Source of the DNA: Herpetosiphon giganteus
GTDB lineage: Bacteria; Chloroflexota; Chloroflexia; Chloroflexales; Herpetosiphonaceae
Assembly: GCF_016907925.1 (NCBI RefSeq)
Contig: NZ_JAFBCZ010000018.1
Coordinates: forward strand, 64,001-123,933
Direction: 5' to 3'
DNA length: 59,933 bases
Made by a program: the position numbers and the translations under genes. This document shows positions 4,039 through 59,760 of this stretch, one piece after another (positions within the stretch are counted from its first letter, which is position 1; each line of letters starts with the position of its first letter). The notes beneath the pieces were generated by a model, which was not told the origin of the DNA, searched no databases, and saw only the letters and a program-made list of their open reading frames with translations.

Positions 4039-4354
4039 GACCGTGTGCTCCTTTCAAGCAGAGGTGAATTTCAAACCTCGGCCACTATAAAGCTAGATAG
4101 TCCGAAACAACGTCCTTGCCCACGTCCCAAAGGTCAATAAAAGATTAATAAACGATGAAGTAGCGATGAAGATTGCTGAGAATTCCAGCTAACAAACTTA
4201 ATTTTAGCCACACCCACGCATAAACGTGCGCAAACAGCAAACCAAAAAGCCTTTAGTTCGCAATCATTCTTGGGACATCCACAGCATGAAAAAGCCCCTC
4301 ACACGCTAGGCATGCGCGGGGTTGGGGTAAGCTTACAAAAGGAAGTTATGAAGA

Positions 4355-4488
4355 TCCCCTCACCCCAACCCCTCTCCCATTCGATGGGAGAGGGGCTTTA
4401 ATGTCGTAGTTTTTGCATGATTGGTGGTAAAAACGGGTGCTCCCCCTCGCCCGCGTCAAGTGGGAGAGGGGGTTAGGGGGTGAGGGCA
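4355..4488. repeat. REP-like nested palindromic element: cctcaccccaa + cccctctcccattcgatgggagagggg ... ccccctcgcccgcgtcaagtgggagaggggg + ttagggggtgaggg
   Basis: Two internal perfect or near-perfect hairpins flanked by outer inverted arms. Lies immediately 3' of the FTR1 gene. Related elements at 43941-44033, 48588-48633 and 59803-59853. Confidence 0.7.
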
Positions 4489-4496
4489 TATTCAAT

Positions 4497-6827: not shown

Positions 6828-7076
6828 ACAAGCTCCTAAAATTGTGGTTTGCTGCTGCTCACAATGGGCAACAGCAAAATAAACCGACAAAGGACGTGAA
6901 CTGTATGCCAACAGTTCACGCCCTTTACTGCTTAAGTTTTGTGATGGAGGGACGCACACCCAAACTCCATCGACCTTGCTCCGGCGCAACTTCTTTCTCA
7001 CTGAGCGCATAGGTATACCTGTGATACAAGCAGTATACCTATTTTGGTTCGATTTGCGAATCAGTTCGGGAACCGA

Positions 7077-17321: not shown

Positions 17322-17330
17322 CAAAGTATG

Positions 17331-17445
17331 AAGGATGAATTATGAGGGATGAAGCACAAATCAACCTAATAATCTGTGGCTAAAAACCTTCTTTGTGCAC
17401 TTCATGGTTTGTATAATTCATCCCTCATAATTACGTAAACCTGAT
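17331..17445. repeat. MITE-like inverted-repeat element of the GGATGAA/TTCATCC family
   Basis: Left arm gaaggatgaattatgagggatgaagcacaaa. Right arm tttgtgcacttcat...ataattcatccctcataatt (inverted). Lies between convergent truB and 17539..18033. Confidence 0.65.
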
Positions 17446-17538
17446 CCCTAGCCCCTGAACCCTCTTAACTAAAGCCCAAAGCCTATAGCCTATAGCCACA
17501 TGGACTCTTCAGCCTTCATCCCTCATCATTCATAATTG

Positions 17539-18033
17539 CTATTGGGTTGTATACGGCAAAAAGACGAAATTGGCAGGCACAACTGAGAAGGTGCGGGTGA
17601 TACTTTGGCCTTGGTAGGTGCTGCAATCATACTCAACATGCCAATTCCATGGCCCTAGTGCATCTGCTGGCAATGCTTGAGTTTGGGTATAAATGTAGGT
17701 AAACGGGACGATTGCTTGGCCTTGGCCCATAACGCCATTGAAAACATAATTCCGATCGCCAGGCCCATCGAGATGGATCGTATGACCACAGCGCGGGCCT
17801 TGCCAATTAAATGTCCATTTGTTGGGGGCAACTGGCTGTGGCAAAATGGCTTCGTTGGCTGGCGATTGCAGGGTAGGTTCTGGCCCGGGAGTTGCGGTTG
17901 GGCCGCCAAACGAGTAGGCAAGGCTGCTTGTAGTTGCTGAAGTGGCATGGTTCGGTGCAAGCAAGGTTCCGACGATGAACAGTCCGATCAGCGCTACCAC
18001 AACGATAGTGCCTGTGCGTTCGATCAAATTCAT
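17539..18033 (-). CDS. Hypothetical secreted/membrane-anchored protein
   Basis: N-terminal TM segment; RBS aggagg. No recognised domain. Confidence 0.5.
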   Translation of the reverse strand: MNLIERTGTIVVVALIGLFIVGTLLAPNHATSATTSSLAYSFGGPTATPGPEPTLQSPANEAILPQPVAPNKWTFNWQGPRCGHTIHLDGPGDRNYVFNGVMGQGQAIVPFTYIYTQTQALPADALGPWNWHVEYDCSTYQGQSITRTFSVVPANFVFLPYTTQ

Positions 18034-18189
18034 ACCATCCTCCTAAACTGTAGCACTGGCTGAATCAGCAACAGTCAGATGCTACAACTCGATAGTAATT
18101 TTTTTGAACGCAATAAGCAATAGCCGATCTAGGCTAGATTATCGTTTTGATCCACGAAGCGCAAGCAGAACATAGAACATAGACAATTA

Positions 18190-18530
18190 GTTACGAAGCC
18201 CACAAAGATAACGTTTTTAGCCACGAATTCCACGAATTCCACGAATGATCATTTTTTGAGCCACAGATTCACACAGATTAGCTCAGATTATGATTCCTAT
18301 AGCCAATAGCCAATAGACTACAGCCACGTTTTCGCCACAGATTGCACCGATAAAGCTTTTTAGCCACGAATTGCACGAATTGCACGAATAATCCGTTAGT
18401 TGCCACAGATTGGCCCAGATTATAATTCCGATAGCCTCCAGCCAAAAGCCACGTTTTCACCAAAGAGTGCCCAGATTGATTTGCTATTTGAGGTGGCATT
18501 TCATTCCTCATCCTTCATCCTTCATAATTT
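18190..18530. repeat. Mosaic tandem repeat block: two ~140-bp higher-order units built from ccacgaatt, cacagatt/ccagatta and tagccaatag sub-repeats, ending in ttcatccttcatccttcataatt
   Basis: Unit A is about 18214-18355 and unit B about 18356-18490. Both begin tttttagccacgaatt(c/g)cacgaatt(c/g)cacgaat. Confidence 0.7.
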
Positions 18531-18532
18531 TA

Positions 18533-19438
18533 TTAGAGGCCAATAATGCCGCGCCGCCGTAGGAAGGGCAGAATGCTTTGCTCAAGCGGGCGATCGCTGC
18601 GAATGCCAGCATAGGTCGCCCCATAGCGCTGACACAGTTGCTCGTGCATGCGCACCCAACGCACCAATTTTTCGCGATCATCTTTTTGGGTTTGTTGATC
18701 AAGCTCAAGCGCTAACACTTGGCCAGTTTCACTATCTTCAAATTCAACTGGGCCGCTTAGCGTAGGCTTAATTTCTTCGGGATGCAGCAGGTGCAGCACC
18801 ACAACTTGCCAGACTGGCGGAGCAGCAGCCCGTAGCAATGGCTCTAAATCACTCGTCCAAAGGTCGGAGATGATCAAGAGCATGCCGCCAGAACTGCGGC
18901 GAACTGCTTGGGTAATCGGCGTGAAGGAGGTTTGTCCAGCCCAATTCAAATTACTCAAATAGCGCAGCAAATCGGGGCCGCGCGCCCGACTAACCGCCGG
19001 CCCAAACGGCTTGATCAATTTGCTGGTAAATGGCCAAATCGTGGTTTGATCGTTTGAGGTGAGGCCGAGATAGCCGAGCATTGCCGCCAAACGCAGCGCA
19101 TAGCGACCTTTATGCAGCTCGCCTTGGCCCCAATCCAGCGAGGCCGAGCAATCCAAAGCAATTGTAATATTGATATCTTGTTCGGTTTCGCCAAGCTTCA
19201 CATGCAAATCTTCATGGCGTGCATAGGCAAACCAATCGACGTGGCGAAGGTCGTCGCCCGGGCTATAGGCGCGATGATCGCTAAATGTTGGCGCGGGCAA
19301 ACGCCGTCGCGAGGCATGTTCGCCGCTCAAGCCTCCGCGTAAGGTACGCCGCGAACGCAACGCGAGACGTTCGATCCGCGCTAAAAAATCAGGGTTAAAC
19401 AGGTCGCCACTAGCGCCCGAAGTAGTCTTGAATCGCAT
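18533..19438 (-). CDS. DUF58 domain protein (vWA-like, MoxR-associated family)
   Basis: Motif DWFAYARHEDLHVKLGETEQDINITIALDCSASL. Start set to the MRFKTTS methionine, which overlaps the end of the upstream gene by ~28 nt. Confidence 0.7.
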   Translation of the reverse strand: MRFKTTSGASGDLFNPDFLARIERLALRSRRTLRGGLSGEHASRRRLPAPTFSDHRAYSPGDDLRHVDWFAYARHEDLHVKLGETEQDINITIALDCSASLDWGQGELHKGRYALRLAAMLGYLGLTSNDQTTIWPFTSKLIKPFGPAVSRARGPDLLRYLSNLNWAGQTSFTPITQAVRRSSGGMLLIISDLWTSDLEPLLRAAAPPVWQVVVLHLLHPEEIKPTLSGPVEFEDSETGQVLALELDQQTQKDDREKLVRWVRMHEQLCQRYGATYAGIRSDRPLEQSILPFLRRRGIIGL

Positions 19439-28728: not shown

Positions 28729-29859
28729 ATGCCTCGTCAGCTTTTAACCTATCTTGATGCTTGCCTGCCGGATCTGTTGGATGAAATGCGTCAATGGATC
28801 GAAATTGAGTCGTTTACCCGTGATATTACGGCGGTTTCTTGGATGGTCAATGTGGTTGGCGAGCGCTTGAGCAAACTTGGCGCAAGTGTGCGCAAATACA
28901 ATGGCAAACCTCAAGCCGACCATTTGTTGGCCAGCTGGCCCGGCGAGGGCGAGCCAATTCTAATTGTCGGCCATGTTGATACCGTCTATCCGCCAGGCAC
29001 GATCGATCAATTTCCCTTCCGCATTGATGGTGATGTTGTGCGCGGGCCAGGCGTGAGCGATATGAAGGGCTGTATTTTGCTGACCTGCGCTGCCTTGCAA
29101 GCGTTACGCCATTTTGGGCGCTGGACAAGCCGTCCCTTAAAATTTTTGATTACCACCGATGAAGAAATTGGCAGCCCAACCTCGCGGCGCTATATTGAAG
29201 AGCAGGCGCGAGGCTGTCGTGCTGCGCTGATTATCGAATCGGCGGAAGAAGGCGGCTGGCTCAAAACATGGCGCAAAAGTGTCAGCATGTATGATTTGGA
29301 GATTACTGGCAAGCCGTCGCACGCTGGCGTTGCCCCTGAGCTTGGCATTAGCGCCATCCATGAATTAAGTTATCAGATTGGCCAGATTTTGCCTTTGGCC
29401 CGACCTGATATTGGCACGACGATCAATATTGGCAAAATTAGCGGGGGCACTGCCGCCAATGTAGTAGCCGCCGCAGCTCATTGCACCATTGATGTACGCG
29501 CACTCAAAGTTGGCGAGGCCGAACGCGTCGATCAAGCCTTACATCAGTTAGCGCCACGGCTGGCTGGAGCCAAATTAAGCTTGGAAGGCGGCGTGAATCG
29601 CCCAGCCATGGAACCAACGCCGGCAACGATGGCCTTATACGCAGCTGCCGAGCATATTGCCAATCAACTCGATTTGCCGATTAAAGCCAGTGGCACTGGC
29701 GGCGGCTCGGATGGCAATTTCACCTCGGCGATCGGCGTGCCGACCCTCGATGGCCTTGGCGGCTGGGGCAGCGATTCGCATAGCTTCGACGAGTGGCTCT
29801 CGATCAGTCAATTTGCGCCTCGCGCTGCCTTGTTGGCGCGTTTGATTGAAACGTTGTAG
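28729..29859 (+). CDS. M20 family metallopeptidase (carboxypeptidase G2/ArgE-like)
   Basis: M20 metal-binding motifs GHVDTV and ITTDEEIGS. RBS ggagga. Confidence 0.75.
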   Translation: MPRQLLTYLDACLPDLLDEMRQWIEIESFTRDITAVSWMVNVVGERLSKLGASVRKYNGKPQADHLLASWPGEGEPILIVGHVDTVYPPGTIDQFPFRIDGDVVRGPGVSDMKGCILLTCAALQALRHFGRWTSRPLKFLITTDEEIGSPTSRRYIEEQARGCRAALIIESAEEGGWLKTWRKSVSMYDLEITGKPSHAGVAPELGISAIHELSYQIGQILPLARPDIGTTINIGKISGGTAANVVAAAAHCTIDVRALKVGEAERVDQALHQLAPRLAGAKLSLEGGVNRPAMEPTPATMALYAAAEHIANQLDLPIKASGTGGGSDGNFTSAIGVPTLDGLGGWGSDSHSFDEWLSISQFAPRAALLARLIETL

Positions 29860-29860
29860 A

Positions 29861-30157
29861 GCATAGAACATAGAGTATAGAGCGAAAGGATGAAGGATGA
29901 AGGATGAAGGATGAAGTTTAACGCATAGGCGCAGAGAACCAAAGGATGAGGGATGAAGTCAATAACCTCATCTTCGTGTCCTTCGTGCTCTTCGTGGATC
30001 AATTCATTAACGCAGAGGCGCAGAGAAAACGTGGCTTTTGGCTATGGGCTATCGGAAGATTGTTTAGAAGGCACAGGATCATCCATCCTAGAGCCTATAG
30101 CCTAGAGCCTATAGCCTCACTTCGTGTCATTCGTGGATCATATTCAGGAGCTAAACA
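29861..30157. repeat. Mosaic intergenic repeat block: (ggatgaa)x4, aacgcagaggcgcagag x2, cttcgtg modules, tagagcctatagcc modules
   Basis: Same module families as at 17331-17445, 18190-18530, 33700-33990, 35640-36070, 41165-41423 and 56730-56947. Confidence 0.7.
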
Positions 30158-33699: not shown

Positions 33700-33990
33700 T
33701 GATCGGGTAGCATTGCTACCCTTTTTTAATTTAATCCACGAAGGATACGAAGCTGAGAAACCGCGAAGGTCGAGAAATTTTCTCAGTCCCTCGTCCGTGC
33801 ATTTCATCCTTCATTCCGCATCCTTCATATTTTTGAAGCTCTACACCTCTGCGTTAAATGCGTACTCTATTTTGCTTTTTGACTTTTGATTTCTGCCTTT
33901 TCACTTTTAAAAAGGGATCAGGCTTGATGGAATCCATCCTCCAAAGCCTAATCCCTTTTGCTTTTTGATTTCTGACTTTTGACCTTTAAC
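33700..33990. repeat. Mosaic intergenic repeat block (ttcatccttcattccgcatccttcat; cttttgatttctg(c/a)cttttgac modules)
   Basis: ctttt-gac modules recur at 59721-59760; ttcatcc modules recur elsewhere. Confidence 0.6.
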
Positions 33991-35687: not shown

Positions 35688-36127
35688 CGCAGAGGCGCAG
35701 CGTGTTTTTTGCACGCGAAGCACCCAAAGTTTGGGAATTGGAACTCTAACAACAATCCAACAAACAAACATTAGGGGGTGCTGGGGGATGAAAACCCCCG
35801 GCGTTTCCCTCCGGCGGAGGGACGGAAGGGTGGCGAACGATGAAAGATCTAAGCATCCAGCACTTTGCGCACGGTTTGCGCTAAGGTTGCCAATGAAACC
35901 AGAATGTTGCAGAGGCGCAGCGTGTTTTTTGCGCGCGAAGCACCCAAAGTTTGGGAATTGGAACCCTAACAACAATCCAACAAACAAACATTAGGGGGTG
36001 CTGGGGGATGAAAACCCCCGGCGTTTCCCTCCGGCGGAGGGACGGAAGGGTGGCGAACGATGAAAGATCTAAGCATCCAGCACTTTGCGCACAGTTTGGG
36101 CCAAGGTTGCCAATGAAAACGGCTTGC
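35688..36127. repeat. Tandem direct duplication of a ~220-bp unit (copy A about 35688-35907, copy B about 35908-36127). Each copy embeds the 66-bp structured element. Copy B overlaps the 3' end of the hybrid HK gene; copy A carries a pseudo-3'-end fragment of it.
   Basis: The units differ at only a few positions. Both contain ...gatgaaagatctaagcatccagcactttgcgcac..., the reverse complement of the HK C-terminal codons plus stop. Confidence 0.85.
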
Positions 36128-39326: not shown

Positions 39327-39737
39327 TTACCAGCGGTTCGAGCGTGATGATGATTGTTGGCTTTGGAAGCAATCGCGGCAGTAAACTGGCTTGTCGCCAC
39401 GTGGTACGAATGGCACTTGTGCAGGGCCGCCACATGATGAACAGGTGGTGGTGTGCATTTCGCGTTGACCGCGATCTGAGCTGAAGCCACCACGATCTGA
39501 GCTGTAACCACCACGGTCTGAGCCATAGCTGCTGCGGCTGTAGCCACCACCGCCGCCACGGCTTGAGCTTTCGTAGCCACCGCCACCGCGATTTTGTTTG
39601 CGGGCTTGGCGGCAGTTTGAACAGCGAGTTGGCTCGTTGTCAAAGCCCTTTTGAGCATAAAATTCTTGTTCGCCAGCGGTAAATACGAACTCGTTGCCAC
39701 AATCGCGGCAGTTCAACGTCTTGTCGGTAAAGCTCAT
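39327..39737 (-). CDS. Zinc-ribbon protein with two CxxC pairs flanking RGG/GGY-rich low-complexity repeats (putative nucleic-acid binding)
   Basis: N-terminal CRDCG...CSNC and C-terminal CSSCG...CRDC. Middle region RGGGGYESSSRGGGGGYSRSSYGSDRGGYSSDRGGFSSDRG. RBS ggagaa. Confidence 0.55.
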   Translation of the reverse strand: MSFTDKTLNCRDCGNEFVFTAGEQEFYAQKGFDNEPTRCSNCRQARKQNRGGGGYESSSRGGGGGYSRSSYGSDRGGYSSDRGGFSSDRGQREMHTTTCSSCGGPAQVPFVPRGDKPVYCRDCFQSQQSSSRSNRW

Positions 39738-39973
39738 TAGCTTGTTTCTCCAACTATGGTAAGGGATTCCAATTGTTTCAGGTTGGAGTCACGAAGCTCA
39801 GGGAAGAGATTGCATATCCACTCAGTCCGAGGTAATGTGAGGAACCAAACCATGTCAACGCAATCATTGTACCAAAACTATCTACAATTTACAAGAGGCA
39901 AAATGTGCTTTTTTGCCACGAGTTTAATCATGCGGGGTAGCTAGGGGTGAAAAAGTGGTTAAACTATGGTGGC

Positions 39974-40020: not shown

Positions 40021-41157
40021 TTAGCTGCCGAAGATTTTGCTCCAAAAGCCACGCTCTTTTTGCTCGAAATGATCCATGCCCATGGTCTCGCCAAGTTTCT
40101 GGAACAGTTCGCGCTGGTCTTCGTTGAGTTTGGTTGGCACGCGCACTTTAACCACAACCATTTGATCGCCGCGGCGGCCTAAGTTGCGCCCCGATGAATC
40201 AATGTAGGGCACGCCTTTGCCGCGCAAGGTAAAGACTGTCCCATCTTGGGTGCCCGCTGGCACATTCAACGGCTCGTCGCCATCAACGGTTGGCACATTC
40301 AGTTGCGCACCCAAGGCTGCTTGCACAATGTTAATTGGCAGTTGCAACAGAATATTGTTTTCTTCGCGCACAAAGAAATCGTGTGGTTGCACCCGTAAAT
40401 TAACATACAGATCGCCAGCAGAGCCGCCACTTGGTCCGCTATCGCCAGCCCCACCAATTCGAATCCGCATGCCATCATCAACCCCAGCTGGCACGGTCAA
40501 TTTGCGCTTGACGGTTTCGCGGACGCGGCCTTCGCCGCGACAGGTTTTACATGGAATCGGAATAATCACGCCACGCCCAGAACATTGATCACAGGTGGTG
40601 ACGGTGACCATATTCAGGAAGGTGCGCACCCGCATCTCGCCCGAACCTTGGCACTTGGGACAGCGCGTTGGCTCGGTGCCAGGTTCAGCGCCATTGCCAC
40701 CACAAGGCCCACACGATTCGAGCCGCCGATAATCAAGCTCTTTTTCGGTACCAAAAATCGCTTCTTCAAAGCTAATCACCAAATCGGCGCGTAAATCGGC
40801 ACCTTGGCGCGTGCCGCCACGGCTACCGCCACGCGCACCTTGGCCAAAGAAGGCATCGAAGATGGTGCTAAATGGATCGCCGCCAGCGCCACCAAAGCCC
40901 GAAAATGGGTCGAAGCCTTGGCCGCTGCTGCCAGCATGGCCAAATTGGTCGTACATGCGGCGCTTTTGATCGCTCGAAAGCACCTCGTAGGCTTCGGTTG
41001 CCTCTTTGAATTTGTTTTCGGCTTCTGCATTGCCGGGGTTGCGGTCGGGGTGATATTGCATGGCCAACTTGCGGTAGGCCTTTTTGATCTCGTCAGGTGA
41101 GGCACTTTTGCCCACACCTAGTACTTCGTAGTAGTCGCGTTTTGCCTCAGTTGCCAT
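40021..41157 (-). CDS. dnaJ: Molecular chaperone DnaJ
   Basis: J-domain with HPD, a G/F-rich region, and four CxxCxGxG zinc-finger repeats. Confidence 0.95.
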
Positions 41158-41164
41158 ACATATC

Positions 41165-41423
41165 CCTTATGTAGTAAGGATGAAGGATGAGGGATGAATT
41201 ATGAACATCCCCATCGCTCACACCTTGGTTAATCTTGTAGAAGGGTGAAGGATGAGGGATGAATTATGAACATCCGCACCATTCACACCTTAGGTTTGTA
41301 ATGTAAGTTCTGCGCTTGATGTCTAAATTACATATTCAATAATGAAGAATGAAATAACCTTTCTAAATTCATAATTCGTCTATTTCATCCTTCATCCTTC
41401 ATCCTTCATCCTTCATAATTTCG
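41165..41423. repeat. dnaK-dnaJ spacer filled with GGATGAA-family repeats: two ~50-bp direct repeats (gaaggatgagggatgaattatgaacatcc...cacacctt) and (ttcatcc)x4-ttcataatt
   Basis: R1 at about 41178-41230, R2 at about 41244-41295, heptamer run at 41385-41420. R1/R2 and the run are mutually inverted, so long hairpins are possible. Confidence 0.7.
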
Positions 41424-43280
41424 TTAGAGTTCTACTTCGTCGGCATTGCCTTGTTCTTGGCTGGAGGTTTCTGGCTCGATGCCAAAATCGGGTGCTGGCT
41501 TGAGCCGTTGCATTGCCACGCTCAATTCAGCAGTACGATTGTTGATCGCTTCCATATCGTCGCCATCAAGCACCGCCCGCAGTGCCGCAATCCGATCTTC
41601 GACTGTGTTACGAGCAGAGTAATCCACATTCTCATCGGCTTCGCGCAACATGCGATCGGCGGCGTAGATTACGCCATCGGCTTTGTTGCGAGTTGCAATT
41701 TGATCACGGCGGCGCGCATCACTATCGGCGTGATCTTCAGCATCGCGAATCATCGAGGCAATTTCATCATCGTTTAAGCCCGACGATGGCGTGATGGTGA
41801 TTTTTTGCTCTTTATTGGTTGCTTTGTCGGTAGCGCTAACATTAACAATCCCGTTGGCATCAATATCAAAAATAACTTCAATTTGCGGCACGCCACGCGG
41901 CGCGGCAGGAATGCCATCGAGGGTAAAACGGGCCAACGATTTGTTATGCCGAGCTTCGGCGCGCTCACCTTGCAACACATGAATTTCGACACTATTTTGA
42001 TTGTCGCTCGCGGTTGAGAAAATTTGCGAACGCTTGGTCGGAATCGTGGTGTTGCGATCAATCAGCGGGGTCATCACACCGCCATAGGTTTCGATGCCCA
42101 AGGTCAATGGCGTTACGTCAAGCAACAGCACATCGGTCACATCACCCGAAAGCACACCCGCCTGAATTGCCGCGCCAATTGCCACCACTTCATCGGGATT
42201 CACACCCTTGTGTGGATCTTTGCCAAAGAATTTTTTGACGGCGGCTTGCACAGCTGGCATGCGGGTTTGGCCACCAACCAAAATCACTTCATCAACTTCG
42301 CTGGCTTTCAAGCCAGCATCTTGCAAGGCGAGTTTGATTGGCTTGAGCGTGCGTTCGACCAAATCGCCAGTCAATTGCTCAAGTTTGGCGCGGGTCAAGG
42401 TGGTATTCAAGTGTTTGGGGCCGCTGGCATCGGCACTGATAAACGGCAGCGAAATATCGGTTTGCAACACGCTCGAAAGCTCTTGTTTGGCCTTTTCGGC
42501 AGCTTCCTTCAAGCGTTGCAAGGCCATGCGGTCGCTGCGCAAATCGATATTATTTTCGCGTTGGAATTCGCTTGCTAGCCAGTCGATAATCTTTTGATCG
42601 AAATCATCGCCGCCGAGGTGGGTATCGCCGTTGGTTGCGCGAACCTCAAACACCCCATCGCCAAGCTCCAAAATTGAAACGTCGAAGGTGCCACCACCAA
42701 GGTCATAGACGACAATTAATTCGTTGGTGTTGCGATCTAAGCCATAGGCCAAGGCGCTGGCGGTTGGCTCGTTGATGATGCGCAATACTTCGAGGCCAGC
42801 AATTTTGCCAGCATCTTTGGTCGCTTGGCGCTGCGAATCATCAAAATAGGCCGGAACCGTAATCACCGCTTGAGTGACAGGCTCGCCCAAATAGGCTTCG
42901 GCATCTGCTTTGAGTTTTTGCAAAATCATGGCCGAAACTTCTTGCGGCGAGTAATCGCGACCACCCATCAAAACCCGGGCATCGCCATTGGGCGCGCTGG
43001 TCATGCGATAAGGAATCAAATCCTTGTCGCGTTGAACGCTAGGATGATCTAATTTACGGCCAATAAAGCGCTTGACCGAATAAATTGTATTTTCGGGATT
43101 GGTGACCGATTGGCGCTTGGCCACCAAGCCAACCGTGCGTTCACCGTTTTTGCTCAAGGCGACAATTGAAGGCGTGGTGCGTGCGCCTTCGGCGTTGGGA
43201 ATAACCACCGCCTCGCCACCTTCCATGACCGCAACCACTGAATTGGTTGTTCCAAGGTCAATACCGATCACTTTACCCAT
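41424..43280 (-). CDS. dnaK: Molecular chaperone DnaK (Hsp70)
   Basis: Start at the [14 protein letters not shown] methionine. Hsp70 signatures throughout. Confidence 0.95.
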
Positions 43281-43374
43281 ATACTTATTGCTCCACAGAC
43301 AGCGACAAAGCATCGTTAAGCGACAGCCACGAACGGCAGCGATGCCACTTAAACGATGCTTTGCCTAGGTGCTC

Positions 43375-43890
43375 CTACTTGCCGACTTTGACGACCGTTG
43401 GACGCAAGACCCGTTCGCCGAGCTTGTAGCCGCGGCGCAATTCGGCCACGACTTTGTTTGATTGGGCTTCGTCGCCTTCTTCAAACATAATTGCTTCGTG
43501 AACATTGGGGTCGAATTCTTCATCAACGGCGGGAATTGGTTGCAGGCCAGCGCCCTCAAGCACCGTTTCAAATTTACGTTGTACTTGTTTAACGCCGCCA
43601 ATCCACTGATTGTTTTCAATTTCAGCGGGAATTTGGCCCATCGCCAAGAGCAGGTCGTCGAGCACTGGAAGCAATTTCAACATTAAACCAGCGCTAGCAT
43701 TGCGAATCAACTCCTCGCGTTCGCTTTCGGTGCGGCGTTTGTAATTTTTGAAATCGGCAATTGCGCGCATCCAGTTGGTTTTATGTTCTTCAACTTCGCG
43801 TTCGAGCGTGGCGATCCGTTCGTTCAGGCTTTCTGCATCGCCTTCAGGATTGGTATCGTCAGTTGATTGTGCTTGCACTTCTTCCGTCAT
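43375..43890 (-). CDS. grpE: Nucleotide exchange factor GrpE
   Basis: GrpE-like coiled coil and C-terminal beta domain. RBS ggaggtatggag. Confidence 0.85.
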   Translation of the reverse strand: MTEEVQAQSTDDTNPEGDAESLNERIATLEREVEEHKTNWMRAIADFKNYKRRTESEREELIRNASAGLMLKLLPVLDDLLLAMGQIPAEIENNQWIGGVKQVQRKFETVLEGAGLQPIPAVDEEFDPNVHEAIMFEEGDEAQSNKVVAELRRGYKLGERVLRPTVVKVGK

Positions 43891-43940
43891 GAGAACTCCA
43901 TACCTCCGTAAAGATCAAATTTGTATTATCACCGAATTAG

Positions 43941-44033
43941 GTTTCCTCACTCCCGCCCTCGCGCACCCGTGAGTCAAAAATCCTGTGCTCCCCTCGCCCG
44001 CTCTGTGGGAGAGGGGTTGGGGGTGAGGGAACC
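43941..44033. repeat. REP-like palindromic element (cccctcgcccgctctgtgggagagggg + ttgggggtgaggg)
   Basis: Same family as 4355-4488. Lies between hrcA and grpE. Confidence 0.6.
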
Positions 44034-44042
44034 TTATTCAAC

Positions 44043-45107
44043 CTATTCTGTTGGTTCTATTTTGCGTTCGCCGTATAAATCGCCCATCAGATCGCTCATG
44101 ACCCCAGCGATATAGCGCACGCTAGAGATTGAGCGCGGATAGGCCATGCGGCGCGGCCCCAAAACCCCGACAACTCCGGCAACATCGCCATTGACTCCGT
44201 AGCGCGAAAGAATCACACTATAATCGCGCAACTCATCGCGGCTATGCTCGCCGCCGATAATCACCTGCACGCCATCGGAGGCCAAGGCTTGGGGAATGAG
44301 CGATTCGAGCATCGTGCCGCCTTCGAGAATCGAAAGCACCTCGCGCACCCGCGTCACCTGGCCAAACTCTGGTTGATGCAGCATTTCGAGCAAGCCATCG
44401 TGATGAATTAATTCGTTGACATGCTCCTCGAATTGTTGCATTGCCCGCGCCACGCTCTCGATCACCAGCATTTCAAAACTGCTGAGCGGAGGTTGAGCCA
44501 CAGGCTGCGTCAGCGCAAGCGCCGCAATCGCCTTGGCCGAAGCTTCATGACAAAGCTCATTGATCCGGCCAGCGATTCTGCTAAGCTGCTCTTGGGTGGT
44601 GTTGGGGTCGGCGGGCAGCGTTTGTTGCTTAACCGAGCCTTCGTGCAACACCAACACCATCAACACCAAGGCATCGTTGATCGCGATCAATTCAATATGT
44701 TTAAAGCGACTTTCATAGGCGCGCGGGGGGGTAACCACGGCTGCGGTTTGGGCAGTTCGGGCCAAAACCGCTGCTGCCAAATGAATCCATTGGTTCAATT
44801 CCGAGCGGATTTGATAGAACTGATGTTGGATCATGCGCTGTTCTTGGGTGGAAAGCGCCGCCCGATCCATCAAATTTTCGACAAAGAAGCGATAGCCAGC
44901 ATCGGTGGGCAAGCGCCCAGCCGACGTATGCAAATGGGTCAAAAGGCCAGCATCTTCTAAGGCCGCCATTTCGTTGCGGACAGTCGCCGAGCTAACCCCC
45001 AAACTCCGCGCAAGATCCTGCGAGGCGACTGGAGTTGCCGTATCGATGTATTGTTGGATAACTGCCTTAAGCACCCGTCGTCGCCGCTCATTGAGTTCTA
45101 GATTCAT
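44043..45107 (-). CDS. hrcA: Heat-inducible transcription repressor HrcA
   Basis: N-terminal winged-HTH ([28 protein letters not shown]). Heads the grpE-dnaK-dnaJ operon, with a CIRCE operator upstream. Confidence 0.9.
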
Positions 45108-48581: not shown

Positions 48582-48587
48582 CGGGAT

Positions 48588-48633
48588 ACCCTCACCCCAG
48601 CCCCTCGCCTACTCAACACGGGCGAGGGGAGCA
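48588..48633. repeat. REP-like palindromic element (ccctcacccc + cccctcgcc-tactcaacac-gggcgagggg)
   Basis: Same family as 4355-4488. Confidence 0.55.
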
Positions 48634-48676
48634 CTGGTCTCGTGGTTAACCTGATATACCAATACGAATAACCACA

Positions 48677-54023: not shown

Positions 54024-56708
54024 TTAGCGTGGATACACATAATAAATCTCTTCGGAAAGGCCAATATCCTCGCTAATCCGCCAATCAATCTGTAATGCTT
54101 GGCCATCCCAGCTGAGTTGCTCAAGGCTTGGTTGCCACAAATGCTGGGCCAGCAGCGTTTTGCCATCGTTATACAAGGCTACTGGTTTTTTGAGCGGATC
54201 ACGCTTTGTACTAAATACGAGGCTTGGTTGTTGGGCGTTATAAACGCCAAGCCGTTGTTCGCGGCTAATATTCCCAAAATCCAACAACAACCAACGGCCA
54301 TCAGGCGACCATAAAAATGGGCTTTCGCTACTCTCGGAATACGCGCCTGAATCTAGTTGATACCAGCGTTGCTGCTCAAGCTGATATAAGGCCGGAGCAC
54401 TACTGCCATCAGCTGTTGGCAACATAAAAGCAAAGCTATTGCCTTCGGGCGAAAAACTCAGCGCATCGGCGGCTAATGGCATCAATGGCAGGGCAATATC
54501 GTGGCTTTGCTGCTTAACCAAATCGAGCACTCGCAACAGCATCGTTTTATTAGCAGCAGCCAGCGGGTAGATTAGCCAGCGTTGATTGGGCGCAACATAC
54601 ACCCGGGCCAGAATCGCATTGCTCACATCAGGAATGTTGGCCACAATCGCGGGAATTTCAGCGATTTTTTCTGCTTGGAATGGCGGCCCGAGCTGCACCC
54701 GCCAGAGCAGTTGAGGGTTTTTGCTGGTTTGCAGAAAATAGATGCTATCGCCTTGCCAAGCAAGCGGCTTAGCCCATTTCAATTCTGGCCAGGTGCGCGA
54801 ATCGGCGAGCACATTCCATTCGCCAGTTTGGGTATTGATTTGCAGCAGTTGACTTGCCCCAATAAATTGATCGTTGCTACGCATATCTTGGCCTACCACC
54901 ACCACCATGCTTTGATAATTTGGCGCAAGCATGCTGTCGATAAAACTTTCGTCGTTCAGAATCTTTTCAAATTCCCATTCGACAGTTTGCTGGCTCACCG
55001 GATCAAGCAATTGCCATGTTTTTGATTTGGGGTGTTGCAGCACTAAGGGCGGCTGATTATAGCGCTCAAACAGCCTAGAACCTTCCTCAACCAATACTTC
55101 AAGCGTTTGATCAGATGATAGCCGTTGCAAGCGTAAATCTAGGCCAAGTCGATCGCCAAAAATTGCCACTGGCTGAATGCTTGGGGGTTGAATCGTTGGC
55201 AAATTCGGTTGATCATACATTGGCACCATGGTTGGTAACGGCGTAACCGCCGCTTGATATTCGCTATTCGCCAGATTAATCGCCGGGCCAGCGATCTCAC
55301 CCAGCCATGCAATGCCATGATCGCCCCAAACTGAAGCTGGAACAACCTCGGTCAAGCTATTGGTTGCGACATTCCAACGGCTAACCAACTGCTGCTCACG
55401 CTCCCAATCGAAGCTCGAGATGAACCATTGATCGGCAGTTATGCCAGGGTAGATTGAGCTAAGGCTGTCAACTTCGCTGATCCCAAGCAACTGCCCAGTT
55501 TGCAGGTTGTAGACCGAGCTGAAATACCGATCGTCAACGCGTGGATCATCACTGCTGACGATGCTCTCAACCACTAAGGTTTGTTGGTTATGCGAGAACG
55601 TGGCGCTAAGCAGATTGCCTTGAAACGGCGGATTTAATGCTACTTTTTGCTCATTACCACTCGCCCAATCGATCAGGCTCAACGTGGTTGGTGCCCGAAA
55701 CACCCCCAAGAATGGTTGCGTGCCATCACCAACAATCTCATTCTTATTAAGCGCACCAACATCACGTTTTGTCATGGTCATGGGGTCAAATTGAAACAGT
55801 TTATCCTCTTCGATGCCCCAAATCTTGCCATCGCTGGTCATGATATGGCTATGGCCTGGGAGTGGTAATGAGCTGGGGCCATCAAGCAGCTGACCATCCT
55901 GAATCGCGAGATGGCTCCACGTCCAACGTGCATCATCGCTACGTTGATCAAGCACATAGACCCCGCTGCCAGCTTGATCAACTTTTAGCCTACTTTTACG
56001 ATCATACTGGTTTTTGGGCAATAATTGCATACTCCAACGCGGCTGACCCGTTTTGAGGTCAATTGCAACTAAGTTTTGGTTACGCGGCAGCAGCAAGGTT
56101 TGTTGCTCGGGCAACAGCGCCATAAAGTTTGCTGCATACTCATCGACGGTCGCAATTGGCACAAAGCCTGTAGCCTCAACGCGTACCAATTGATATTGCT
56201 CTATATCAGCACGCACAATCATTGCATAGCTATGGATTTGGTCAACAGGTGTAGGTTGAGCCGTTAACGTTGGCAGCGTTGTAGGTGTTTGAAGCCCAAG
56301 CGTTGCTGCGGGAATCGTCGTTGTTGGTTGTTGAATCGCGGGCACAATTGTTGGCAACAACTCGGCATCATTCAGATCCCTGGTTGGAACGCTGGTGAAT
56401 GCTGGCTCAATCGTCGCTAACCGAAACTCGCCTGGGTCTGCTGGCAAAACTTGGATTGGCGGCGCTGATTGCTCTGGTTGCCAGGCAGGAAACGGCGCGG
56501 CAATCAAGGTTGGGCTAGGCTGAATACTTGGCGTAGCTGAACCAAGCAAGGCCACCGCAGTGGAGTCAACATCCGCTTCATCAAGCCTACTTGGCATGAA
56601 TGTCAGCACCAGCATCAAGCCAAGTAGGCCCAACGCCCCAAGCACGGGCAGCACCCGCCACCAATTGCGATCCTTGCTCAGTTTCACCCGTTCTCGTTGT
56701 GGTTGCAT
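54024..56708 (-). CDS. Membrane-anchored beta-propeller-repeat protein, paralog 3 (TolB/PD40-like repeats; ends IYYVYPR)
   Basis: ATG for MQPQRERV follows RBS gaggag; the ORF track starts at an upstream TTG. TM segment WWRVLPVLGALGLLGLMLVL; P/T linker; motifs AIDLKTGQPRW, LSFSPEGNSF and WSPDGRWLLLD. Confidence 0.65.
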   Translation of the reverse strand: MQPQRERVKLSKDRNWWRVLPVLGALGLLGLMLVLTFMPSRLDEADVDSTAVALLGSATPSIQPSPTLIAAPFPAWQPEQSAPPIQVLPADPGEFRLATIEPAFTSVPTRDLNDAELLPTIVPAIQQPTTTIPAATLGLQTPTTLPTLTAQPTPVDQIHSYAMIVRADIEQYQLVRVEATGFVPIATVDEYAANFMALLPEQQTLLLPRNQNLVAIDLKTGQPRWSMQLLPKNQYDRKSRLKVDQAGSGVYVLDQRSDDARWTWSHLAIQDGQLLDGPSSLPLPGHSHIMTSDGKIWGIEEDKLFQFDPMTMTKRDVGALNKNEIVGDGTQPFLGVFRAPTTLSLIDWASGNEQKVALNPPFQGNLLSATFSHNQQTLVVESIVSSDDPRVDDRYFSSVYNLQTGQLLGISEVDSLSSIYPGITADQWFISSFDWEREQQLVSRWNVATNSLTEVVPASVWGDHGIAWLGEIAGPAINLANSEYQAAVTPLPTMVPMYDQPNLPTIQPPSIQPVAIFGDRLGLDLRLQRLSSDQTLEVLVEEGSRLFERYNQPPLVLQHPKSKTWQLLDPVSQQTVEWEFEKILNDESFIDSMLAPNYQSMVVVVGQDMRSNDQFIGASQLLQINTQTGEWNVLADSRTWPELKWAKPLAWQGDSIYFLQTSKNPQLLWRVQLGPPFQAEKIAEIPAIVANIPDVSNAILARVYVAPNQRWLIYPLAAANKTMLLRVLDLVKQQSHDIALPLMPLAADALSFSPEGNSFAFMLPTADGSSAPALYQLEQQRWYQLDSGAYSESSESPFLWSPDGRWLLLDFGNISREQRLGVYNAQQPSLVFSTKRDPLKKPVALYNDGKTLLAQHLWQPSLEQLSWDGQALQIDWRISEDIGLSEEIYYVYPR

Positions 56709-56947
56709 CGATATTGCTCCTCTATTCAATCATGAGTGGCTATCGGCACTAGGCTATAGGCTATTGGCTATGGGCTATTGGCGTTGGGAACCGCGAAGCG
56801 CACGAAGGACGCGAAGGTTCGTTTTTAGCCACAAATTGCCCGAAGCATAGAGTGTCGCCACAGCTTCATACTCCCAATAGCCTTCAGCCTAGAGCCGATA
56901 GCCTAACTCCTCCCCCCTGATCCCCGATCCCCGATCCCTACGTACAA

Positions 56948-59611
56948 TCAACGCGGATACAGATAGCGAATCGTCTCAAGCCTTATTTCCATTGGGGCCA
57001 TACGCCACTCAGTTTGCCATTCTTGCTCGCGCCATGTCAACTGGGTAAATGCCGGATTCCAAGATTGGCCAGTTAGAAGCGTTTTGCCATCGTTATCCAA
57101 GGCTAGTAATCGATGCTCGGTCGGCTCAATTTGCGAACGCAAAGCGAGGCTTGGTTGCTGCGTATTATAGATGCTCAGGCGGCGGTTAAGCCCAACATAG
57201 CCAAAATCGACCGCCAGCCACTTGCCATCAGGCGACCACAAAAACTGGTCTTGGCTATTGGCATAAAAGCCTGCATCAAGCTGATACCAACGTTGCTGCG
57301 CAAATTCATACAAGCCAACATAGTGATCATGTTTGGGGTTCAAGCTTGGCAGGATTAACCCAAAACGCTCGCCATCGGGCGCAAAGCTCAAGCTCACCAG
57401 ATCGATCAATGGCAGCGTCAATTCATGGCTTTGTTGCTCGACCAAATCGAGCACCTTCACCAACATAGTTTCCTTATTCGCCGTCGCCAGCGGATAGAGT
57501 AACCAGCGTTGGTTGGGTGAAATAACGATTCTGGCAAAGATTGGATAACTTGAAACTGCTGGATCACTGGTAACAACGCTGGGAATTTCAGCCAGTTTTG
57601 TGGCTTGGAACGGTGGGCCTACTTGCACGCGCCAAAGCACCTGCGGGTTCGGCCCAGCTTGCAGAAAATAAGCGCTATCGCCGTGTAATGCAATTGGTTT
57701 AGCCCATTGCAGCTCAGGCCATGTCCATGAATCAGCGAGAATATTCCATGTGCCAGTTTGCAGATTAATCTGAACTAACTGACTTGAGCCGGTAAATTGA
57801 TCGCTGCGCTGTAAATCTTGGCCCACAATCACCAGCAAGCTGCGATAATCGGGTGCTAGCAAGGGGTCAAAATCCAATTCGCTAGTACTAAGAATTTTTT
57901 CAAATTGCCATTCCACAGTTTGTTGGGTGTTTAGGTCGAGCATTTGCCACTGGCGTGCTTGGGGGCGTTGCAGCACTAATGGAGTTTGGTTATAGCGTGG
58001 AAACGTGTGCACCACAAAATCAGCAAGCAACTCCGTGTGCAAGTCGCTATCGATCCGCTGTATGCCACCGTTAGCAGCAACCAAGGCCACGGGCTTGGTC
58101 GTAGCAGGCAAGATCGTTGGCAATGGTGTTTGTTCATAGATCGAAACAGGGCTAGGCAAGGGCGTAACTGCTGCTTGAAATTCACTTGCAAGCGGTTCAA
58201 TTGGCGCACCGCTAACCTCGCCAAGCCATAGAATGCCATTATCGCCAATGATCGTTGGCACAACTACTTGGGTCAACGTATTGGTTGCCATGTTCCAAAG
58301 GCTAAGATCGCGCTTGGAACTCACATAATCAGGCATGATTACTAACCATTGATCGGCACTATTGGTTGGATAGAGGCTGCTAAACATATCATGCTTGATC
58401 GTGGCAATTAATCGGCCAGTTTGGAGATCATAGGCTAAATAGTCATCATTTGCGCTGAAGGAACTGGTAGGCGGAGCCGCACTATCAACAACCAAGATCG
58501 TTTGATCGTTGGATAAAAAGCCTGCTCTAGGCATCCACTCAAATGGGCTTGCGTCTAATTCAACTGAACGCTCGTCGCCAGTTGCCCAATTGATCAGGCT
58601 CAATGTTGTTGGGCTACGAAATACGCCCAACAACGGTTGGCGGCCATCGCCCAAAATTGTCGCGTTGGAGAGTGAACCAAATTCTTGGTAGGCTTGGGTT
58701 GCAGGGTCATAGTGAAACAGGGTTTCCGGCGTGGAAAACCAAATGTGGCCAGTGCTCGTGAGCAACAGTTGATCAACTGCTGGCAATTTAAAATGTTGGG
58801 CTGGTTGCTGCAAAATTCCATCATTCAACCCAAGGTGACTTAAACGCCAGGTCATCGTTGCTTGATTAATTTCAATCAGATAGACCCCAGTGCCAGCCTG
58901 ATCAAGCGTCAAGTGACTTGTATAATCAAGCGCCGTTTTGGGCAACAAACCATAGCGCCATAGTTCGCGACTAGTCGCCAAATCAAGCGCAACCAATTGC
59001 TGATTGCGCGGAATCAAGACACGTTGTTGCGCAGGCAACAAGGTCATAAAGCGCTCAGCATAGGCATCAACGGCAGCAATCGAAACCAAATTATTGGAGT
59101 CGATTCGCACGAGGTTATGGCCCGCAGGGCTATGCACAATCGCATAGCGCTGGCTTTGGGTAGCTGGCGTTGGGCGCGCAGTTGGCGCTGGCAGCGGCGT
59201 AACGGTTGAGGCTGGTAGATTGGTTGGTGCTGGCTCAATCACCGGCACAATCGTGGGTAAGGGCATCGGATCGCCTGGCAATTTAGGAGGAACGGTTGTC
59301 AGCACAAGTTCTGGTTGCACCGTCACCACGCGAATCTCGCCCAGTTTATCGGGCAGCAGCCGAATTGGCGGTGGCTCCGCTGGTCGGGTAGGAAATGGCG
59401 CGGCAATCAAGGTTGGGCTAGGCTGAATACTTGGCGTAGCTGAACCAAGCAAGGCCACCGCAGTGGGGTCAACATCCGCTTCATCAAGCCTACTTGGGAT
59501 GAATGTCAGCACCAGCATCAAGCCAAGTAGGCCCAACGCCCCAAGCACGGGCAACACCCGCCACCAATTACGATCGTTGCCAAGTTTGACTCGCTCCCGT
59601 TGTGGTTGCAT
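56948..59611 (-). CDS. Membrane-anchored beta-propeller-repeat protein, paralog 4 (ends IRYLYPR). The first 81 residues and the leader are nearly identical to paralog 3.
   Basis: Same architecture: ALDLATSRELW, LSFAPDGERFG and WSPDGKWLAVD. The 5' ~250 nt of the CDS and ~120 nt upstream are nearly identical to 56460-56850. Confidence 0.65.
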   Translation of the reverse strand: MQPQRERVKLGNDRNWWRVLPVLGALGLLGLMLVLTFIPSRLDEADVDPTAVALLGSATPSIQPSPTLIAAPFPTRPAEPPPIRLLPDKLGEIRVVTVQPELVLTTVPPKLPGDPMPLPTIVPVIEPAPTNLPASTVTPLPAPTARPTPATQSQRYAIVHSPAGHNLVRIDSNNLVSIAAVDAYAERFMTLLPAQQRVLIPRNQQLVALDLATSRELWRYGLLPKTALDYTSHLTLDQAGTGVYLIEINQATMTWRLSHLGLNDGILQQPAQHFKLPAVDQLLLTSTGHIWFSTPETLFHYDPATQAYQEFGSLSNATILGDGRQPLLGVFRSPTTLSLINWATGDERSVELDASPFEWMPRAGFLSNDQTILVVDSAAPPTSSFSANDDYLAYDLQTGRLIATIKHDMFSSLYPTNSADQWLVIMPDYVSSKRDLSLWNMATNTLTQVVVPTIIGDNGILWLGEVSGAPIEPLASEFQAAVTPLPSPVSIYEQTPLPTILPATTKPVALVAANGGIQRIDSDLHTELLADFVVHTFPRYNQTPLVLQRPQARQWQMLDLNTQQTVEWQFEKILSTSELDFDPLLAPDYRSLLVIVGQDLQRSDQFTGSSQLVQINLQTGTWNILADSWTWPELQWAKPIALHGDSAYFLQAGPNPQVLWRVQVGPPFQATKLAEIPSVVTSDPAVSSYPIFARIVISPNQRWLLYPLATANKETMLVKVLDLVEQQSHELTLPLIDLVSLSFAPDGERFGLILPSLNPKHDHYVGLYEFAQQRWYQLDAGFYANSQDQFLWSPDGKWLAVDFGYVGLNRRLSIYNTQQPSLALRSQIEPTEHRLLALDNDGKTLLTGQSWNPAFTQLTWREQEWQTEWRMAPMEIRLETIRYLYPR

Positions 59612-59632
59612 CGATATTGCTCCTCTATTCAA

Positions 59633-59760
59633 TCATGAGTGGCTATCGGCACTAGGCTATTGGATGTTGGCTATTGGCTTTTGGCGTTGGGAACCGCGAA
59701 GCGCACGAAGGACGCGAAGATCACGAGGGCTTTGGACTTCTGACTTCTGACTTTTGATGT
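59633..59760. repeat. Conserved leader/repeat block upstream of paralog 4 (tggctatcggcactaggctattgg..., cgcgaagcgcacgaaggacgcgaag, ctgacttctgacttttgat)
   Basis: Nearly identical block at 56730-56830 upstream of paralog 3. Contains TTCGTG/CACGAA and ctttt-gac modules. Confidence 0.6.

Follow-up and report, generated by a model that had tools for sequence, protein, structure and literature searches.

The heat-shock operon of Herpetosiphon giganteus raises the question of what occupies the space between dnaK and dnaJ, and what it might do there. In the 59,933-nt stretch of H. giganteus DNA analysed here (the window), the operon runs hrcA-grpE-dnaK-dnaJ on the minus strand, with hrcA at 44043-45107 and grpE at 43375-43890 by Pfam, and positions 41158-41423 are precisely the dnaK-dnaJ spacer, 266 bp made up of GGATGAA/TTCATCC heptamer runs. 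A sequence-only reading of the window had taken these runs for either non-autonomous elements resembling miniature inverted-repeat transposable elements (MITEs) or an RNA-structure-mediated regulatory system. We found that the spacer consists of intergenic heptanucleotide tandem repeats like the short tandemly repeated repetitive (STRR) sequences of cyanobacteria, and not of transposons. Whether their paired arms form a gene-end hairpin for dnaK is, in our judgement, an evenly balanced matter.

Heptamer arrays in the dnaK-dnaJ spacer and across the window

Read in transcript order, the dnaK stop codon TAA is followed by CGA and then by AATTATGAA(GGATGAA)4, a purine-rich run that begins 3 nt past the stop and holds TGA in all three frames. 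On the opposite strand, Tandem Repeats Finder (TRF) reported it as (TTCATCC)4.7 at 41384-41416 with 100% matches, confirming the inverted TTCATCC run described earlier. About 87 nt of AT-rich unique sequence come next, then two tandem 65-nt units (the two direct repeats of about 50 bp in the sequence-only reading), and finally a small conserved hairpin overlapping the dnaJ start (Table 1). Each 65-nt copy contains GGGGATG-TTCATAATT-CATCCC plus a TTCATCC-type run and ends in TCATCC-TTCA(C/T)CC. The spacer thereby holds one 5' arm and two 3' arms, of which the proximal is 87% complementary to the 5' arm at a distance of 113 nt and the distal is 90% complementary. In the predicted minimum free energy (MFE) structure (-88.7 kcal/mol, z = -5.5), the 5' run pairs with the distal 3' run and closes the entire spacer into one hairpin, and the proximal run is an alternative partner. 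The small hairpin displays the Shine-Dalgarno-like AGGGA of dnaJ in its loop, and its sequence is conserved in 4/4 Herpetosiphon species; DnaJ itself shares 98% identity with its counterparts in H. aurantiacus DSM 785, H. geysericola and H. llansteffanensis.

The transcribed strand of the spacer gave no sigma-70-like promoter match, as would be expected if dnaJ is transcribed by read-through from dnaK. Rfam searches returned nothing in the spacer, either at gathering thresholds over the whole window or at E values up to 1 over 35.5-41.5 kb, and a search for tRNA or tmRNA genes found none. The only small open reading frames (ORFs) in the spacer were 22-25-aa frames reading through the repeat (HNSSLILHP), which were rejected; with no stop in any frame of the TTCATCC strand, the arrays can mislead ORF callers. 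Heptamer arrays also break short-read assemblies. The only public contig with exactly this DnaJ, Logan contig SRR18701128_300, stops 47 nt upstream of dnaJ, within the repeats.

The runs are real and non-random. The 14-mer GGATGAAGGATGAA, allowing at most two mismatches, gave 21 matches in the window compared to 0.43 expected, a count reached in 0 of 100 shuffles, at 17326-17339, 17508-17528, 18500-18527, 29888-29957, 33803-33816, 41178-41270 and 41384-41418. The sites listed in the sequence-only reading were correct, but the list lacked two more, at 17508-17537 and 29944-29957. Seven was the most frequent tandem period (16 arrays vs 0.8 in shuffles), and all 16 arrays were intergenic, as had been claimed, that is, within the non-coding 12% of the window. 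They belong to mutually unrelated families, GGATGAA (AAGGATG), TAGCCNA, TAGAGCA/AGAACAT, CTTTTGA and CCCCGAT, interleaved with the 9-mers CCACGAATT and CTTCGTGNC and a recurring 17-mer, AACGCAGAGGCGCAGAG (4 matches vs 0.22 expected). This agrees with the earlier observation that other modules recur, among them CACGAATT/CTTCGTG 9-mers, TAGCCNA and CTTTTGA. Array density was 0.27 per kb in the window; dnaJ loci of other bacteria (1.15 Mb) had 0.04 per kb, and the H. aurantiacus plasmids pHAU01 and pHAU02 (150 kb) had 0.02 per kb. That plasmid DNA contained just 3 minimal period-7 arrays, compared to 19 in 81 kb of chromosomal DNA. The six divergent (promoter-only) spacers of the window, a small sample, contained no arrays, and the highly iterated palindrome (HIP1) motif GCGATCGC was not enriched in the window (1 vs 2.1 expected), so that a cyanobacterial source of the DNA was rejected.

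The arrays are oriented with respect to genes, and a random distribution without orientation bias was not seen in the window. At 6/6 window sites, the GGATGAA purine run lies in the mRNA sense as the first array of its family past a stop codon, and at 4 of those 6 (truB, the 164-aa gene at 17539, the DUF58 gene ending at 18533 and dnaK) it starts 1-4 nt past the stop. A TTCATCC-type run appears in a transcript further 3' only, as the partner. Both dnaK and DUF58 end in CTC-TAA followed by AATTATGAAGGATGAA within 3 nt, in line with the reported abutment of the motif on these two stop codons. The accompanying statement that the runs lie most often at gene 3' ends agrees with the six sites. At 56730 and 59633, GGCTATN runs lie directly before start codons; the arrays are thus not confined to gene 3' ends.

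Hairpins at orthologous sites and in metagenomes

Comparison with orthologous spacers showed equivalent hairpins at the same site in relatives. The comparison drew on 21-kb orthologous pieces. Synteny is conserved over 20 kb, with DNA identities to the window of ~95% for H. geysericola and 84-92% for H. aurantiacus. The dnaK-dnaJ sites of H. geysericola and H. llansteffanensis carry the GGATGAA family, with a different unit composition and a non-homologous central segment: where the window has TTATGAA-(GGATGAA)4 as its 5' arm, H. geysericola has TTATGAA-TTATGAA-GGATGAG-GGATGAA and H. llansteffanensis has TTATGAA-GGATGAA-GGATGAG-GGATGAA. The 130-nt spacer of H. aurantiacus contains (TCAAAAG)-type then (CTTTTGA)-type units, and its predicted fold pairs both arms. 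A Herpetosiphonaceae metagenome-assembled genome (MAG), L005, has (GGGGTCA)n ... (TGACCCC)n at this site, and two further MAGs, L006 and L007, have a short spacer with a plain hairpin. All these hairpins are bounded by the dnaK stop on one side and the dnaJ ribosome-binding site on the other, with fold z-scores of -5.5 for the window spacer and -2.5, -3.4 and -3.2 in relatives. The hairpin and its position persist while the sequence, and even the heptamer family, is replaced on both arms. Among more distant Chloroflexota with adjacent dnaK and dnaJ, five genomes have an ordinary hairpin right past dnaK, followed in three by a T-run, and two others have heptamer runs in the spacer, (GAATTCA)5 in L024 and (CGACGAC)n in L021.

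Heptamer arrays were also seen beside dnaJ at eight loci, L021 and L024 among them, from other Chloroflexota (Anaerolineae and relatives) and from one Terriglobia MAG; (TTACTCG)n/(CGAGTAA)n and (GACGAAG)n/(CTTCGTC)n are examples of inverted pairs. Such arrays thus extend beyond Herpetosiphon.

Three properties align these arrays with STRR sequences. The units are 7 nt long and head-to-tail, with 4.7 copies at 100% matches in the 5' arm; several unrelated heptamer families are dispersed in non-coding DNA; and alignments of the window with H. geysericola, H. llansteffanensis and H. aurantiacus show that unit number and content vary among close relatives at one locus. The arrays gain and lose whole units, presumably by slippage and by copying between arrays or arms. 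None of the window units is a strict cyanobacterial STRR1-3 unit (CCCCAGT, TTGGTCA and CAACAGT, reportedly described in heterocystous cyanobacteria by Mazel and colleagues in 1990), and the host belongs to the Chloroflexota.

A metagenome scan for three GGATGAR units matched at least 120 stretches; among the matches listed, these had 40-69% G+C, and most contained other heptamer arrays too. Where two runs of opposite sense lay at most 300 nt apart, the purine run came first in 50 cases and second in 1, the latter an artefact of two adjacent hairpins. An independent scan of virus-labelled contigs, using the exact pattern in both arrangements, gave 26 purine-first stretches (32 hairpins by distinct match positions) and 0 in reverse. 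Gene context was assessed by the first in-frame stop of a long ORF, which replaced noisy naive ORF-caller statistics. By this test, 37/50 hairpins adjoined an ORF of at least 150 codons whose first in-frame stop fell in the first arm or at most 30 nt before it, the in-arm stop being the TGA of unit 1, 2 or 3; often the hairpin itself supplies the adjoining gene's stop codon. In 11/50, a long ORF stopped on both sides, as expected of convergent genes. Arm complementarity was slightly higher within a hairpin than between different hairpins (0.93 vs 0.90, p = 0.002), and among 88 related hairpins the 3' flank was mildly T-enriched (0.27-0.35 vs a background of 0.19).

Many high-G+C contigs shared the outer pattern GGATGAA-GGCGGAA-GGATGAA ... 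TTCATCC-TTCCGCC-TTCATCC, in which the aberrant second unit is fixed. Viral contig L223 carries two hairpins, at 7034 and 8633, that are identical including the loop, and whole-unit copying therefore occurs in some genomes. Contigs with GGATGAR hairpins spanned 40-70% G+C and included virus-labelled ones; the highest number was 5, on a single contig of 31.8 kb. The 14-mer was absent from all named genome loci of the comparison set (L005-L081).

A putative gene-end hairpin and its alternatives

From the sequence and by analogy, the most likely role of the spacer would be that of an attenuator or stabiliser hairpin at the dnaK 3' end. In the hrcA-grpE-dnaK-dnaJ transcript, the purine run AAUUAUGAA(GGAUGAA)4, beginning 3 nt past the dnaK stop, would pair with the two UUCAUCC-type pyrimidine runs further 3', so that the transcript could fold a ~30-bp stem that encloses the spacer and ends ~20 nt before the dnaJ start. 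If transcribed and folded in vivo, such a hairpin may partly terminate or pause transcription before dnaJ and may block 3'-to-5' exonucleases, and dnaK message would be made or kept in excess over dnaJ. We infer a gene-end hairpin because the arrays start at the stop codon in the sense orientation, their geometry is conserved and relatives have terminator-like hairpins. It is plausible that the structure may set the dnaK:dnaJ ratio, an idea that fits the terminator-like hairpins at this site in other Chloroflexota. The RNA-structure half of the sequence-only reading accordingly survives in part: by pairing, the inverted runs can enclose the spacer in a long hairpin, and a regulatory effect is plausible. 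Repetitive extragenic palindromic (REP) elements and intercistronic stem-loops are known to stabilise upstream mRNA and to give differential expression within an operon, and processing occurs in the B. subtilis dnaK operon, which offers an analogy.

Several observations speak against a gene-end hairpin acting in this way. The structure lacks the form of a canonical intrinsic terminator, having loops of 113-178 nt and no U-tract, and a terminator consensus scan of 41158-41423 was empty for the minus strand; the region had no more terminator-like sites than chance would give (25 vs 27). CUCAUCC variant units in the window transcript give A-C mismatches, where the other strand would have G-U pairs. 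Arrays at 18500, 29886 and 33803 have no inverted partner, and those at 56730 and 59633 precede start codons instead of following stops, so a gene-end hairpin cannot be the whole story. Among 26 orientable hairpins, the sense strand had no folding advantage over the antisense strand (14 vs 12, p = 0.78), and equal folding of the two strands provides no RNA-specific signal. A purine-first rule for all heptamer families was also rejected, with 12 vs 9 hairpins across the other families.

Because the duplex is equally stable either way, the polarity of GGATGAR hairpins must stem from something else. One candidate cause, that stop codons come first, was tried and rejected. It fits GGATGAR, which is closed in three frames while YTCATCC is open; it fails for AGTCAGR/YCTGACT hairpins, which are purine-first 4:0 though their first arm is open, and for TCAAAAG and GGGGTCA. 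Another candidate draws on bidirectional terminators: a pyrimidine- or U-rich 3' arm could form a weak RNA:DNA hybrid behind the hairpin. This idea fits GGATGAR, AGTCARR, TCAAAAG and GGGGTCA, and the flank past the 3' arm is mildly T-enriched, but it does not fit four T-rich-first hairpins of other families, nor the split of 12 vs 9 across all other families. Scans of viral contigs for TCAAAAG and TTACTCR gave no match in either orientation and are hence uninformative on polarity. Neither idea fully accounts for the polarity.

A competing explanation, which we regard as rather unlikely, is that the arrays are neutral, functionless by-products of slippage and recombination that accumulate under weak selection, with hairpins produced by template switching between nearby arrays. 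Their content turns over fast between species with 84-95% identical flanks, unit numbers vary, the perfect (GGATGAA)4.7 run suggests recent expansion and the sense strand folds no better than its complement, all of which favour neutrality; a polymerase-slippage origin of the heptamer excess has also been proposed (Mrazek 2007, as cited in PMC4679880 and PMC4692102). Strict orientation to genes and near-absolute arm polarity are harder to reconcile with it, as are the retention of a hairpin between two fixed boundaries through an exchange of heptamer family and the presence of arrays in place of the terminator-like hairpin found in relatives. The near-absence of arrays from 150 kb of plasmids in the same cell, presumably copied by the same replication machinery, and their absence from the few divergent spacers of the window argue in the same direction. 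We consider it quite improbable that the hairpins are MITE- or REPIN-like (REP doublet forming hairpin) non-autonomous elements, with the heptamer arrays as terminal inverted repeats and a transposase acting in trans. Fixed arm polarity would be expected of terminal inverted repeats, and this explanation would also accommodate the whole-unit copies on L223, the outer-unit pattern recurring across contigs and the exchange of heptamer family at an orthologous site. The inverted 30-nt runs, at 90% complementarity, do resemble terminal repeats, but they are arrays of variable length. No target-site duplication was found at the window copies or at 23 metagenome hairpins, where the flanks merely continue the unit (GAA| ... 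|TTC). Window families share arms only, with no common internal sequence or similar length and with unrelated loops even within one contig, the L223 pair being the exception. Arms measure 14-49 nt and their spacing 6-178 nt, unlike the 20-40-nt palindromes at fixed spacing of REPs and REPINs. Sister-species arms differ by whole units, many arrays are solo and, unlike the inverted-repeat element at 43940-44033 described below, none shows a clean presence/absence polymorphism. The proposal of MITE-like elements was therefore not upheld.

Two further explanations were considered. The arrays might bind a protein, of the oligonucleotide/oligosaccharide-binding (OB)-fold or cold-shock type with one molecule per heptamer on single-stranded RNA, or the ribosome, with the AAGGAUGA units as Shine-Dalgarno, AUG and UGA mimics (mini-ORF AUG AAG GAU GAA GGA UGA) that capture or restart ribosomes leaving dnaK; taken jointly, we think these two versions improbable. 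Every GGAUGAA unit contains AAGGA, AUG and UGA, and arrays adjoin stop or start codons. Binding of CspB at one protein per heptamer has been discussed, as has a translational role for TAACTGA repeats (PMC4679880), and heptamer repeats affect recF and recO expression in Nostoc (bioRxiv 10.1101/2022.06.06.494920). Against this, heptamers as unrelated as TCAAAAG, GGGGTCA and GGCTATN are found at equivalent positions, which one sequence-specific reader would not explain, and the purine run is mostly predicted to be sequestered in the stem. An RNA thermometer or heat-responsive switch for dnaJ translation seems hardly credible to us. The site within hrcA-grpE-dnaK-dnaJ, the single 5' arm with two alternative 3' arms and the conserved hairpin at the dnaJ ribosome-binding site would suit such a switch, but AGGGA lies unsequestered in its loop and the long stem stops ~10 nt upstream of it. 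The same type of repeat also follows unrelated housekeeping genes (truB, DUF58, a peptidase), and the spacer has no Rfam match.

Relation to known repeats and other features of the window

Across prokaryotes, heptamers outnumber all other intergenic tandem repeats, and a survey of 7006 genomes saw "no clear clue" to what they do (PMC6344855). Known systems include GGGAATC in Xanthomonas and GGGGAYT in Nostoc (PMC4692102), TAACTGA in Beggiatoaceae (PMC4679880) and TTTTGAA in Nostoc PCC 7120 (bioRxiv 10.1101/2022.06.06.494920). Like the STRRs of Calothrix, Anabaena and Nostoc, the Herpetosiphon arrays are short tandem runs of 7-nt units that belong to several families within one genome. They are confined to intergenic DNA, which often means the inside of an operon, sometimes form inverted pairs and vary strongly between close relatives. 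Nostoc heptamers also occur as inverted pairs and are absent from plasmids (PMC4692102), a parallel to the near-absence of period-7 arrays from H. aurantiacus plasmids. Two units differ from Nostoc units by one base (CTTTTGA from TTTTGAA, GATCCCC from AATCCCC), whereas the phylum and the unit sequences otherwise set the Chloroflexota arrays apart. To our knowledge, strict purine-first polarity and stop-codon abutment have not been described for STRRs.

The TAACTGA repeats of marine Beggiatoaceae, some cyanobacteria and Bacteroidetes are likewise intergenic and gene-oriented, comprise 2-6 units, contain stops in all forward frames, occur among other heptamers and interrupt assemblies, and they have been proposed to act post-transcriptionally (PMC4679880). 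They lie mainly just upstream of start codons and are nearly all direct, with one indirect set, whereas GGATGAA runs lie past stops and are frequently paired into hairpins. The Xanthomonas GGGAATC repeats share extensive variation in length and sequence and include some inverted repeats (PMC4692102), but they form G-quadruplexes, and GGATGAA has no G-tracts. Intrinsic terminators, often bidirectional, are similarly found right past stops, including between convergent genes, with an A- or purine-rich 5' and a U- or pyrimidine-rich 3' side, and relatives have a conventional terminator-like hairpin at the same dnaK-dnaJ site; the window structure differs in its 113-178-nt loop, its lack of a U-tract and its escape from the consensus scan. 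REP elements and bacterial interspersed mosaic elements (BIMEs) are extragenic hairpin repeats at gene 3' ends and between cistrons in enterobacteria and pseudomonads; REPs are fixed 20-40-nt imperfect palindromes of conserved sequence, and REPINs have fixed spacing and a cognate REP-associated tyrosine transposase (RAYT). The heptamer hairpins are likewise extragenic and placed at gene ends or between cistrons, but with variable-length arms and unrelated loops.

Our literature search found no report tying Herpetosiphon to heptamer or tandem repeats and none with a GGATGAA array in a relevant context. Three features seem to be undescribed in the literature searched: heptamer families that replace one another at one hairpin site, an arm order with hardly any exception, and hairpins that adjoin stop codons. 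It is possible, though we think it unlikely, that heptamer-array hairpins are gene-end elements of a general, self-renewing kind, so far overlooked, that many bacteria and their phages share. If so, a purine arm would always come first and a pyrimidine- or U-rich arm second, providing a pause, termination or stability signal from either side and in any slippage register. Function would then be carried by geometry, because three unrelated heptamers interchange at one orthologous site, and the long-unexplained excess of intergenic heptamers would gain a testable function. The dnaK-dnaJ spacer offers a natural experiment in an essential, well-understood operon, with three heptamer families in one spacer, each predicted to fold at the same boundaries. 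Polarity and stop abutment in metagenomes turn a vague question on heptamer function into concrete experiments.

Table 1. Coordinates of the heptamer arrays, hairpins and flanking genes in the window
Feature	Position	Strand	Basis
dnaK (Hsp70), upstream gene	41424-43313	-	Pfam HSP70 E=2e-262; ORF list; stop TAA at 41424-41426
dnaJ, downstream gene	40021-41157	-	Pfam DnaJ, DnaJ_C, DnaJ_CXXCXGXG
5' arm in transcript, AATTATGAA(GGATGAA)4	41384-41420	-	Sequence; TRF; pairs with distal arm in MFE fold
Central AT-rich segment (loop)	41297-41383	-	Alignment: non-homologous to central segment of sister species
65-nt tandem unit, 1.9 copies	41170-41296	-	TRF period 65, 88% matches
Proximal 3' arm, TTCATAATTCATCCCTCATCCTTCACCC in transcript	41240-41270	-	Inverted-repeat search
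Distal 3' arm, TTCATAATTCATCCCTCATCCTTCATCCTT in transcript	41176-41205	-	Inverted-repeat search; MFE fold
Small hairpin UACAUA-AGGGA-UAUGUA	41157-41173	-	Fold; alignment
Spacer between convergent truB (+) and 164-aa gene (-)	17324-17537	.	Sequence; inverted-repeat search; Pfam
AATTATGAAGGATGAAGGATGAGGAATGAA, 3 nt past DUF58 stop, no inverted partner	18500-18529	-	Sequence
Mosaic past M20 peptidase gene	29857-30117	+	Sequence; tandem-repeat analysis
Array region past aldo-keto reductase stop	33803-33990	-	Sequence; alignment; inverted-repeat search
Second spacer-closing hairpin, GGCUAUN then NAUAGCC in transcript	56738-56903	-	Inverted-repeat search; fold z = -4.0

The other array sites differ in composition. 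In the truB spacer, a GGATGAA-type run lies directly past each stop, at 17324-17354 (+) and 17507-17537 (-); an internal partner lies at 17413-17432, and the spacer also has CCCTGAT and TAGCC runs. What had been described as a clean inverted repeat of ~110 bp at 17331-17445 consists of 16-nt perfect arms (20 nt at 90%) with 63-69 nt of unrelated sequence between them. Apart from its GGATGAA-type run, the 499-bp DUF58 spacer (18034-18532) is a mosaic in which CCACGAATT 9-mers are mixed with CAGATT and TAGCC runs and 143 nt are duplicated internally. The M20 peptidase mosaic combines (TAGAGCA)n, (GGATGAA)4.4, two copies of AACGCAGAGGCGCAGAG, (CTTCGTG)3 and a GGCTATN / NATAGCC inverted pair. Past the aldo-keto reductase gene, (TCAAAAG)-type runs surround a canonical hairpin with a T-run, followed by a GGATGAA-type run at 33803-33828, all in the mRNA sense. 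Nearby, GGGTAGC-att-GCTACCC followed by TTTTTT at 33705-33721 forms a terminator-like hairpin on the plus strand, between two minus-strand genes; its stem is conserved and its loop altered in H. geysericola and H. aurantiacus.

The GGCUAUN/NAUAGCC hairpin has 30-nt arms (56738-56767 and 56874-56903, 90% complementary) and lies in the spacer 56730-56947 between two paralogous ~900-aa genes, its 3' arm ending 6 nt before an ATG. The paralogues, at 54024-56729 and 56948-59632, have no Pfam domain and upstream regions that are 91-93% identical, and GGCTATN runs (56730-56770 and 59633-59700) reach 6 nt before the ATG of both, without an obvious Shine-Dalgarno sequence.

Other repeats of the window are of different kinds. 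The hrcA-grpE spacer, 2.5 kb from the dnaK-dnaJ spacer, contains a ~94-nt element bounded by terminal inverted repeats at 43940-44033 (GGTTTCCTCACTCC ... reverse complement of GGTTCCCTCACCCC) that is cleanly absent from H. geysericola, H. llansteffanensis and H. aurantiacus. It looks like a genuine MITE-like insertion in the heat-shock operon, and related copies of the form CCCTCACCCC...GGGGGTGAGGG are present at 4353-4490 and ~48585-48640. At 35689-36118, a 220-bp unit occurs twice in tandem with 97% identity, and 69 nt of it recur identically at 2-70. The unit begins with a AACGCAGAGGCGCAG module that is also part of the heptamer mosaics, its H. geysericola ortholog matches at extra offsets, which suggests a different copy number, and its only Rfam match was sub-threshold (Clostridiales-2, 22.9 bits vs a gathering score of 58.6).

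Downstream of dnaJ, the leader at 39738-39900 (-) precedes a zf_Tbcl zinc-ribbon gene at 39327-39737 and includes ~130 nt that are 100% identical in four Herpetosiphon species, compared to merely 84-95% identity in its coding flanks. It has no Rfam match, is preceded by TTGTAA-N17-TACAAT and a hairpin past the dnaJ stop, and is a candidate cis-regulatory RNA.

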